A stretch of DNA of 64,000 nucleotides, taken from positions 3,472,001-3,536,000 of the forward strand of contig OZ024765.1 of the NCBI GenBank assembly GCA_964016885.1. Direction: 5' to 3'. Position numbers and translations under genes: made by a program. The notes under the pieces were generated by a model. The model did not search any database. It was not told the DNA's origin and saw only the letters and a program-made list of their open reading frames with translations. This DNA comes from Eledone cirrhosa. Lineage: Eukaryota. Position 1 is the stretch's first letter, and every line of letters begins with the position of its first letter. Positions 48,776 through 56,697 of the stretch are shown here, piece by piece.

Positions 48776-48884
48776 AACAGAAAAAATGAAACAAAAGTCT
48801 TAGTACGGCTGTTACTTAAATATAAGTATGTACACATACATATATGTATACAGACGTACAGTAGTATGTGTATATATATATATA

Positions 48885-49691
48885 TTTTTTATCTGTTTGT
48901 CCCGAATCTTCCTCTATCGATTTTAAATCGTATGGTTGATTGTAGACTTGTTCTATATGTGACGGTATTTTAACGATAGTTATAGCTCTGATTCTTCTGA
49001 ATTATTGAGCCCTCTGCCGCTCATATCGAATCTCGTTTATCGTGAACTCGTGCGCCGATTTTTCGATACTCGATCTTTCTAATATATTTAGCTCTGGACA
49101 TAGCTATCCACCAGTTAATTTTATTGCTCATTTTTTGTCGATTCTATTGAGTGATGAATAGCTTTTGTTTTATTTTAACATGTCTATTGAGCACTCTAAT
49201 TCGATATGTGTATTTCCACATTCACTCGAATTGTTTTCGCGGATATAGGGGTCATCTCCCTTGTCTAATGCCATGTGCGTTTTTCACTGGTAGTTGGCTC
49301 CTCTGCCGCCAGGAAAAAACTCGTTGAGAAAGTAAAACTCCGTTCCGCTTACTCTAGTAGGCTTTTATATTTATATGTGAGCTGATAGAGTACAGTCTAA
49401 GGATTTACAGAAACCCATGAAGCTAGATTTAACACCTGTCTAGTGGGTCCGGGTATGATTTTACATTCATTTAAATTATTGACGTATTGTTTTATTGATA
49501 TTTTTTATCTGTTTGTCCCGAATCTTCCTCTATCGATTTTAAATCGTATGGTTGATTGTAGACTTGTTCTATATGTGACGGTATTTTAACGATAGTTATA
49601 GCTCTGATTCATCTGAATTATTGAGCCCTCTGCCGCTCATATCGAATCTCGTTTATCGTGAACTCGTGCGCCGATTTTTCGATACTCGATC

Positions 49692-49702
<11 letters not shown>
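48885..49702 (+). mobile_element. 616-bp unit with ~200-bp terminal direct repeat in (TA)n
   Basis: 48885-49086 matches 49501-49702 with one mismatch seen. Internal TTGAGCACT and hammerhead-like CTGATAGA..GAAA at ~49382-49420. Confidence 0.8.
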
Positions 49703-49741
<39 letters not shown>

Positions 49742-50038
49742 ATATATATAAGGAAAATGGAGTGCTGCGTGGTTGCACATGGGTTACATATGAATAGAAT
49801 TAGTCCTTCATCAGAGATCTTCCAAGCTTCATTGGTATTTCTTTGCTTTAAAAATCATATACCTCTGGTTGGTGCGAGCAATAACTAAATACAGTTATTG
49901 GGACAAGTAAAATAGGGTGAAGCGAGACATGTAAACAAACAAAGATGTTATTGCAACAGAAAGATAGGAAGAGACAAGTACATGATACCTGTAAGCTTAA
50001 GCTTGGTGAAATAATGGACGAGAGATACAGACCATCCG

Positions 50039-50090
<52 letters not shown>

Positions 50091-50419
50091 GAAAAAGTAT
50101 GACCCCGACGGCAGAGCTCAAGCCATTTCGACGGCTATTTCTGGACTCAGAAGAGTCCAGAAATAGCCGTCAGACATGTAGATAGATAGAGTTAGATAGA
50201 TAGATAGATAGATAGACATGTAGATAGATAGACAGACATACAGACAGACAGAAATAAATTAGGTGAATTGCAGTACAAAAGAAAATAAATGAATAAAAAT
50301 ATTAAAAAGAAGAAAGAAAGAAAGAAGGAAAGAAAGAAGTGAAAGCAATGAAGAAGAACGTTTTATTTTTTCGTTATTCATAAAAGAAACATCTGCTGAG
50401 GAACTGGTCATAGGTAACT

Positions 50420-53770: not shown

Positions 53771-53962
53771 ATAGGAACAAGTAAGACCCCGACGGCTGAG
53801 CTCAAGCCGTTTCGACGGCTAATTCTATACAGAATTAGCCGTCGAAACGGCTTGAGCTCAGCCGTCGGGGTCTTACTCGTTCCTATTACCCACTCTACTA
53901 CCCTAAGTATTGAGTACTTTGGTGCGTTATGGTCCACCTGGTTCCTTACCACATTTCATTCG

Positions 53963-54511: not shown

Positions 54512-54703
54512 GTGACAATAAGAATTGCAGTAGTTATATATTGTGTTATTCGCTTTCTAACTAAATAGTTCTGTTTTATACATAGAGCACTCTTTTTTCC
54601 ACTGCTTTTCCTTCGGAAATATTTGACATATTTATATATATATACATATATCATATGTCCCAAGGCTCTGATACCATCAACACTATAAACACAGAGCTGA
54701 CTA

Positions 54704-56323: not shown

Positions 56324-56697
<374 letters not shown>

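Follow-up and report, generated by a model that had tools for sequence, protein, structure and literature searches.

A young non-LTR retrozyme family of Eledone cirrhosa with a variant hammerhead fold and a candidate Penelope-like partner

From our analysis of a 64,000-nucleotide stretch of the Eledone cirrhosa genome (hereafter the window), the insertion at positions 48882-49702 (+) is in all likelihood a 5'-truncated copy of 1.33 units from a non-coding tandem family, whose RNA carries a variant hammerhead and is likely to cut itself. Copying of this RNA into (TA)n is likely the work of a Penelope-like reverse transcriptase borrowed from elsewhere, and the template is probably often a circular monomer. 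The copies form tandem arrays in (TA)n that share a fixed 3' end and a conserved fold but differ in their 5' ends. It is a young non-LTR retrozyme, and from its copies we infer cleavage, a circle and a partner enzyme; the kind is known, and the hammerhead variant is apparently new. How animal retrozymes re-enter the genome has so far been proposed only, and what hammerheads do for Penelope-like elements is not settled. Copies of the 616-nt unit record a probable RNA cut, the start of copying, and a stem held in common with an intact candidate enzyme.

The 616-nt family and its ends

The insertion contains a direct repeat of 206 nt (48882-49087 / 49498-49703) with a period of 616 nt and one mismatch, and this period scored 202 and the runner-up 17. 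The initial annotation had described a direct repeat of ~200 bp with this period, TA on both sides, no long ORF and an internal GAGCACT at ~49189, and each of these was recovered: (TA)n flanks lie to the left (48868-48884) and right (49703-49750), none of the six frames of 48882-49702 holds a long ORF, and GAGCACT is found at 49189, one of 13 occurrences in the window (2.2 expected), several of them close to repeat ends. Both ends of the insertion merge into TA microhomology, and the (TA)n flanks mask target-site duplications. In the family register, where unit position 1 is window position 49087, the left "terminal repeat" is a 5'-truncated partial unit (48882-49086, +; unit positions 412-616), followed by one full unit (49087-49702, +) that closes on the right with the main fixed 3' end. 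Immediately past this main junction lies a stem (49090-49196, +) with GCUC and GAGCACUC arms, a putative reverse-transcriptase signal; GAGCACT is internal in the unit because this stem sits beyond the main 3' end.

The unit gave 192 matches within the 40 places scored out of 906 candidates in the 3.0-Gb genome. By exact pattern, 747 terminal 3' junctions into (TA)n (control pattern, 0) and 1423 internal unit-unit junctions were counted genome-wide, and array size ranged from 0.07 to ~19 units, the longest seen. The 3' end fell at unit 614-616, followed by (TA)n, at 37 of the 40 loci, a set which favours near-identical copies of at least 1.33 units and in which two loci are a single insertion assembled twice; the 5' ends were scattered. 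A further 70 loci were taken from the 747 consecutively along contig C1, skipping four already sampled. Among these, 41 were longer than one unit and 27 reached two, while 55 resolved 5' ends occupied 43 distinct positions and 15 arrays extended past the sequence fetched. The fixed 3' end, 5' truncation and partial tandems are of the Penelope type, and a fixed 3' end with random 5' truncation is the product expected of target-primed reverse transcription that begins internally.

Fixed LTR-type ends in all copies, or a duplication unique to this locus, had been named in the initial annotation as observations that would speak against its reading. Neither applies, as the genome holds many copies, TG..CA ends were not seen in the family and the length of the terminal repeat differs from copy to copy, which sets it apart from LTR/TRIM elements; as a non-coding tandem repeat dispersed in the genome, it conforms to non-LTR retrozymes. 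The locus had also been read as a circularly permuted 1.3-mer of a ~616-nt RNA, with the suggestion that other copies be compared for different permutation points. What survives of this proposal is a retrozyme-type copy of more than one unit of a hammerhead RNA, with Penelope-type tandems, and the 5' ends of other copies do vary. Free circular permutation was rejected, because the 3' position is the same at 37 of 40 loci and variation is confined to the 5' end.

Sister families with a period of ~600-630 nt and 70-85% identity have an identical 3' end (1012 pattern matches; 30 loci examined), and more distant members are 56-61% identical. One of the latter, slightly more than one unit long with 56% identity and a period of 594, lies in the window itself (23301-23917, +), and its hammerhead is of the same type and apparently decayed (GAAA to GAAG). 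The family was present in the contigs of six of seven public sequencing runs (organisms B-E); for X1, a credible family match was not obtained among the contigs of the seven runs.

A variant hammerhead and its footprint

The region 49319-49454 (+) forms a variant type I hammerhead, a well-supported fold by comparative and energy-based prediction and likely self-cutting. Stem I (49319-49323 / 49450-49454) encloses a UUGAGAA core with a U3-A8 pair of positions (49324-49330), a stem II of 77 nt (49332-49408), an extra A before G12 (49409), GAAA (49410-49413) and stem III (49413-49448), with a predicted cut after the GUC, at 49449/49450 (all +). Rfam matched no hammerhead in the unit, and CUGANGA is absent from both its strands. 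A descriptor that tolerated the U3-A8 core, long stems and a single additional base flanking stem II on either side, and that was loosened after the motif had been seen, found a single site per unit (core 238, GAAA 324, C17 at 363) and none on the minus strand, and it matched 1 of 2000 shuffles.

Across 77 arrays, core positions 3-6 and 9 were invariant, N7 was G, T or C, and position 8 was A in 70 (UUGANAA) and G in seven (UUGANGA, U3 with G8), so that the canonical CUGANGA strand (C3-G8) is not found. The extra A between 11.1 and G12 was present in all nine aligned monomers, and stem II, at ~77 nt, is not the canonical short stem. GAAA, A15.1-U16.1 and H17 are in place and the three stems close in register; each unit carries a type I hammerhead fold, as retrozymes do, with a variant core. 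Locally, the hammerhead is the fold of minimum energy (-36.4 kcal/mol), and in the fold of the whole circular monomer stem I has a probability of 0.01, that is, it is predicted to be almost unformed.

With nine monomers, RNAalifold paired 233-237 with 364-368, UUGAGAA coming right after 237. Hammerhead pairing held in 95% of cells of the nine closer monomers vs 23-46% when slid, and their covariation score, reached by 39 of 500 shuffles, was not clearly above chance. For 11 diverged members, RNAalifold returned the three-way junction unprompted, and once the distant members were added, double-sided changes were seen at 19 of 36 pairs. These include stems I, II and III, each of which shows compensatory changes across families 56-100% identical. 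This architecture escapes Rfam and would escape CUGANGA descriptors, yet covariation holds it at 56% identity; similar families may therefore hide among "unknown" repeats.

A hammerhead had previously been placed at 49382-49415. Of this, GAAAC (49410-49414) is indeed a core strand, and CTGATAGA as the other is not. When CTGATAGA (49382-49389, +) was tried as the core, stem I exceeded 1 bp in none of 12 members, and the A9 equivalent varied between A, T and G. It lies within the long stem II, where it covaries with its partner strand, and the true partner of GAAAC is TTGAGAA at 49324-49330. Apart from the family, the window carries a C3-G8 type I hammerhead at 20099-20153 (+), which belongs to a different repeat family and also has an extra base before GAAA.

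The 5' ends of other copies cluster from the predicted cut onward (49450-49473, +; unit 364-387). Unit 372-387 held the 5' ends of 10 of 29 sub-unit copies, where 0.85 were expected from the rest of the first lap. Junctions to a TA run numbered 22 at unit 368 and 15 at 376 genome-wide, with 2 at 355 and 3 at 338, and four insertions start bluntly at unit 364, directly after GUC. True junctions were found nowhere in the genome at unit 362/363, 365 or 366 (the 365 pattern misses some TA flanks), the matches at these positions being internal rearrangements or one-base deletions. At unit 367 there were four matches, three of them ambiguous with a TG-containing microsatellite and one unrelated. We read the cluster as left by RNAs with a 5' end at 364, whose cDNA would mostly be trimmed to the next TA microhomology. 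The 37 copies starting at 368 or 376 comprise 27 0.4-mers, nine 1.4-mers and one longer copy, and since 10 of them exceed one unit, linear multimers appear to serve as templates too. An apparent confinement of stops to the first lap (10/63 vs 2/66, 70 loci) was weakened by these multi-unit copies and is not used here as evidence for a circle. Two further rearrangements were noticed near this region, namely a duplication of unit ~272-387 in which stem III is skipped (L391:1340-1700, -) and a 15-nt duplication next to the predicted cut (L344).

Three other readings of the fold and its footprint were weighed. The hammerhead could be a non-cutting relic or a protein-binding structure, with the 5' hot spot arising from reverse transcriptase stalling at stem I/III or from a transcription start. 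The core does depart from consensus at two points, stem I ends at unit 368, the site of most stops, and the accessible portions of two reports describe no cleavage in 8 of 9 Xenopus retrozymes tested (bioRxiv 10.64898/2026.07.22.740005) and a Poseidon hammerhead dispensable for insertion in vitro (PMC11167929). We nevertheless hold this improbable, in view of the unpaired catalytic positions, which are invariant where N7 and the flanks vary, and of the four blunt ends exactly at 364 with none at 362/363, 365 or 366. The conserved motifs may alternatively be spliceosomal signals (branch CTGAT, acceptor CAG at 49410, donor GT at 49453), the short copies deriving from an excised intron; a GTRWG donor-like word in 11 of 12 closer members and a branch-to-AG spacing of 24-25 nt would suit this. 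It is very improbable all the same, considering that distant members lose the donor consensus yet retain stem I pairing, that 5' ends at 364 fall outside the predicted intron, and that exon-exon and lariat read-through junctions were not found in the genome; family copies in the contigs of the public runs also gave no splice-type joint. It is scarcely credible that the family is a simple dispersed satellite or a rolling-circle DNA element of the Helitron or Replitron type. Such elements are expected to give tandem arrays with one fixed end, but the family combines an RNA structure on one strand supported by covariation, 5' ends at the ribozyme cut site, fold-backs, and two ends tied to stems common with a Penelope-like element.

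Templates and candidate mobilisers

For the preferred reading, in which a likely self-cutting RNA is copied into (TA)n, we considered whether the template is circular or linear. Among 194 monomers, units differed by 1.4 within arrays and by 16.7 between arrays; 50 arrays hold 40 haplotypes, and in 14 of the 50 private variants occur in all units. Three long arrays had identical units in the stretches examined (13/13, 14/14 and 15/15), although assembly polishing could also homogenise the units of such arrays, and three others were mixed (10/13, 7/13 and 4/8 identical). Over four laps the rate of stops stayed flat, at 0.0006-0.0009 per nt; just beyond the end of the first lap lay 5 of the 41 stops (post hoc, P about 0.007). 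A circular monomer, which we consider rather likely and which the available text of PMC7229834 reports for other animal retrozymes, fits both the homogeneity and the even stop rate. Variants common to adjacent units in several arrays are indicative of post-insertion duplication or mixed templates, and the 1.4-unit copies starting at the cut site suggest that linear dimers also appear to be templates. In addition, unit variants recur with period 2 in one array (L034) and period 3 in another (L061), for which dimer or trimer templates or later duplication are possible.

That no circle is involved, the templates being linear, partly cleaved multimers and the long arrays growing through template jumping or through unequal exchange once inserted, seems unlikely to us, though it has evidence to draw on. 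Of the 37 copies that begin at 368 or 376, nine are 1.4-mers, neighbouring units have variants in common in seven arrays (L038, L047, L055, L056, L063, L228, L410), and one haplotype is common to five young arrays, as from one long master locus. Against this stand the arrays of 13-15 identical units, whose 5' ends differ and one of which has a haplotype of its own, the flat stop rate over laps together with the 5 of 41 stops just after the first, the absence of a recurrent indel at the 363/364 joint in multi-unit arrays (194 monomers), and the circles which related retrozymes make, according to the portions available of PMC7229834.

A second 3' end at unit ~508-514 was seen at 15 loci; it is situated at 49594-49630 (+) in the window copy, where it is followed by a second stem, GCUC...GAGCCCUC. 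Nine of 14 second-end loci examined are fold-backs, and in four of them the other arm ends at 616. Each 3' end of the family is followed by a stem with GCUC and GAGC(A/C)CUC arms, and the ~105 nt from the alternative to the main end act as an optional Penelope-type tail. Such a tail with two starts, along with inverted 5' copies, is characteristic of Penelope-type elements.

Other GAGCACT-bearing repeats include the ends of an element encoding a 714-aa protein, whose ORF lies upstream at 5 of 11 loci and whose open frame is full in 16 of 150 genome hits. Its copies stop at either of two alternative ends (5 + 5 of 10 resolved), and past each of these lies a stem of the kind seen in the family. 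A canonical minimal hammerhead precedes the ends, and the targets are (TA)n; the order of parts is alike in this element and in the 616-nt unit. A 12-nt word is common to the unit (in the 49090-49196 stem) and the 5' UTR of the element, a length reached by 48 of 2000 simulations; with two autonomous families compared, the family profile showed no longer homology to the UTR of the 714-aa element. Neither Pfam nor PDB yielded a significant identity for the 714-aa protein, which resembles the reverse transcriptase core of a 784-aa RT/GIY-YIG protein (E 1e-6), and it is classed as Penelope-like because of this similarity and of the structure of its element. The intact 714-aa Penelope-like element is the likely mobiliser of the 616-nt family, through a link at the level of motifs. 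Beside the insertion studied, 3' ends or tails of the 714-aa family or its relatives occur in the window at 1290-1350, 1825-1895, 54560-54630 and 56330-56545, the last being a fold-back.

The 784-aa protein carries RVT_1 and GIY-YIG domains. We take the clades concerned to be Nematis-like and Neptune-like, the 784-aa element presumably being the Neptune-like one. It could be the mobiliser instead of, or together with, the 714-aa element, which we think improbable. Its frame is fully open in 21 of 150 hits, it likewise inserts in (TA)n, and at one insertion (L064:1420-4600, also L032) 4.8 units are joined at unit 480 to its 3' UTR and tail. This chimera, however, is a single event, probably a template switch, and the GAGCAC stem was not found after the ends of the 784-aa element at the loci examined. 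Both autonomous families have microsatellite-rich 3' UTRs, and one copy of the 784-aa element (L186:6799-8163) has an overlapping upstream ORF of ~450 aa in another frame.

Taking the 714-aa Penelope-like element of the same genome as the partner, multimeric transcripts would self-cleave at GUC (49449/49450) into linear monomers and dimers, some of the monomers being ligated into circles. The enzyme would bind the GCUC...GAGC(A/C)CUC stem and, primed by a nick in (TA)n, start DNA synthesis on the UA-rich stretch just upstream. A linear monomer would then give a 0.4-unit copy ending at the cut site and a linear dimer a 1.4-unit copy, while a circle or a long uncut RNA would give arrays ending at random, the 48882-49702 copy among them. 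We put forward a more specific version tentatively, with somewhat less than even confidence: the hammerhead, an undescribed monomer-competent type (U3-A8, extra A before G12, 77-nt stem II), would cut in vivo and be off in the circle, the stem would, much as in telomerase RNA, place the Penelope-like enzyme next to a short stretch of UA template, and the 616-nt circle would be lapped up to ~19 times. If so, a defined RNA, a cis-signal and a protein would be at hand for reconstituting retrozyme transposition, and descriptor-based surveys would undercount retrozymes.

Known retrozymes, Penelope-like elements and neighbouring repeats

Animal non-LTR retrozymes have been proposed as non-autonomous Penelope derivatives (PMC7229834; bioRxiv 10.64898/2026.07.22.740005, in the parts available). 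Like the metazoan non-LTR retrozymes described in the accessible text of PMC7229834, the family has non-coding, AT-rich tandem units with one type I hammerhead each, forms dimers to long multimers and lacks LTR features, and for both Penelope-like mobilisers are proposed; the 616-nt unit also falls inside the 51-972 bp range given by Li, Clavereau and Pollet 2026 in the available part of their report (bioRxiv 10.64898/2026.07.22.740005). It differs from them, as far as those texts extend, in its U3-A8 core, the extra A before G12, the 77-nt stem II, and a stem III of 4-5 bp with an inserted hairpin, an architecture owing to which the hammerhead would need no dimer and is missed by Rfam. Unlike in those reports, the insertion ends, the cut-site footprint and the signal of the candidate partner are here taken from the copies themselves.

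The U3-A8 covariation occurs naturally and is reported active in vitro (PMC3088659), and it is found in Penelope-like elements of Schistosoma (PMC4209133). In the accessible text of these two papers, natural U3-A8 variants carry insertions at 6a, 13a or near C3, whereas the 616-nt family has an invariant A between 11.1 and G12; the motifs in Schistosoma, minimal and in most cases solitary, lie outside tandem retrozymes (PMC4209133), whereas ours lie in tandem units.

Penelope-like elements with an endonuclease have, in the portions available of three reports (PMC11167929, PMC8557442, PMC3846280), an optional tail with two start sites. The 616-nt family is like them in its two internal initiation sites, partial tandems and inverted 5' copies, its AT-rich or (TA)n targets, and a hammerhead upstream of the start sites, and unlike them in having no ORF and a tail of ~105 nt, against 30-40 nt in theirs. 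In Poseidon, according to the available text (PMC11167929), RNA reads did not end at the hammerhead site, whereas genomic 5' ends of our family do. MRC1 and other non-autonomous elements of Chlamys (PMC8557442, in part) share with it multicopy head-to-tail insertions. The Chlamys elements, however, have 3' sequence in common with their partners and in most families are without canonical hammerheads, as stated in the accessible part of the same paper, whereas the 616-nt family shares only a short stem motif and has a hammerhead. In the literature we found no account of the family, of the U3-A8/extra-A hammerhead architecture or of the common stem, though repeat libraries, supplements and figures may list the family; the available part of an octopus repeat annotation gives counts only (PMC13282606).

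Other repeats lie in the window. Perfect fold-back ends of another GAAAC-containing repeat family, with very many copies at the loci fetched, are present at 50090-50175 and ~53790-53900. A broken reverse-transcriptase ORF of a non-LTR retrotransposon, presumably RTE-like, occupies 24365-25536 (-).
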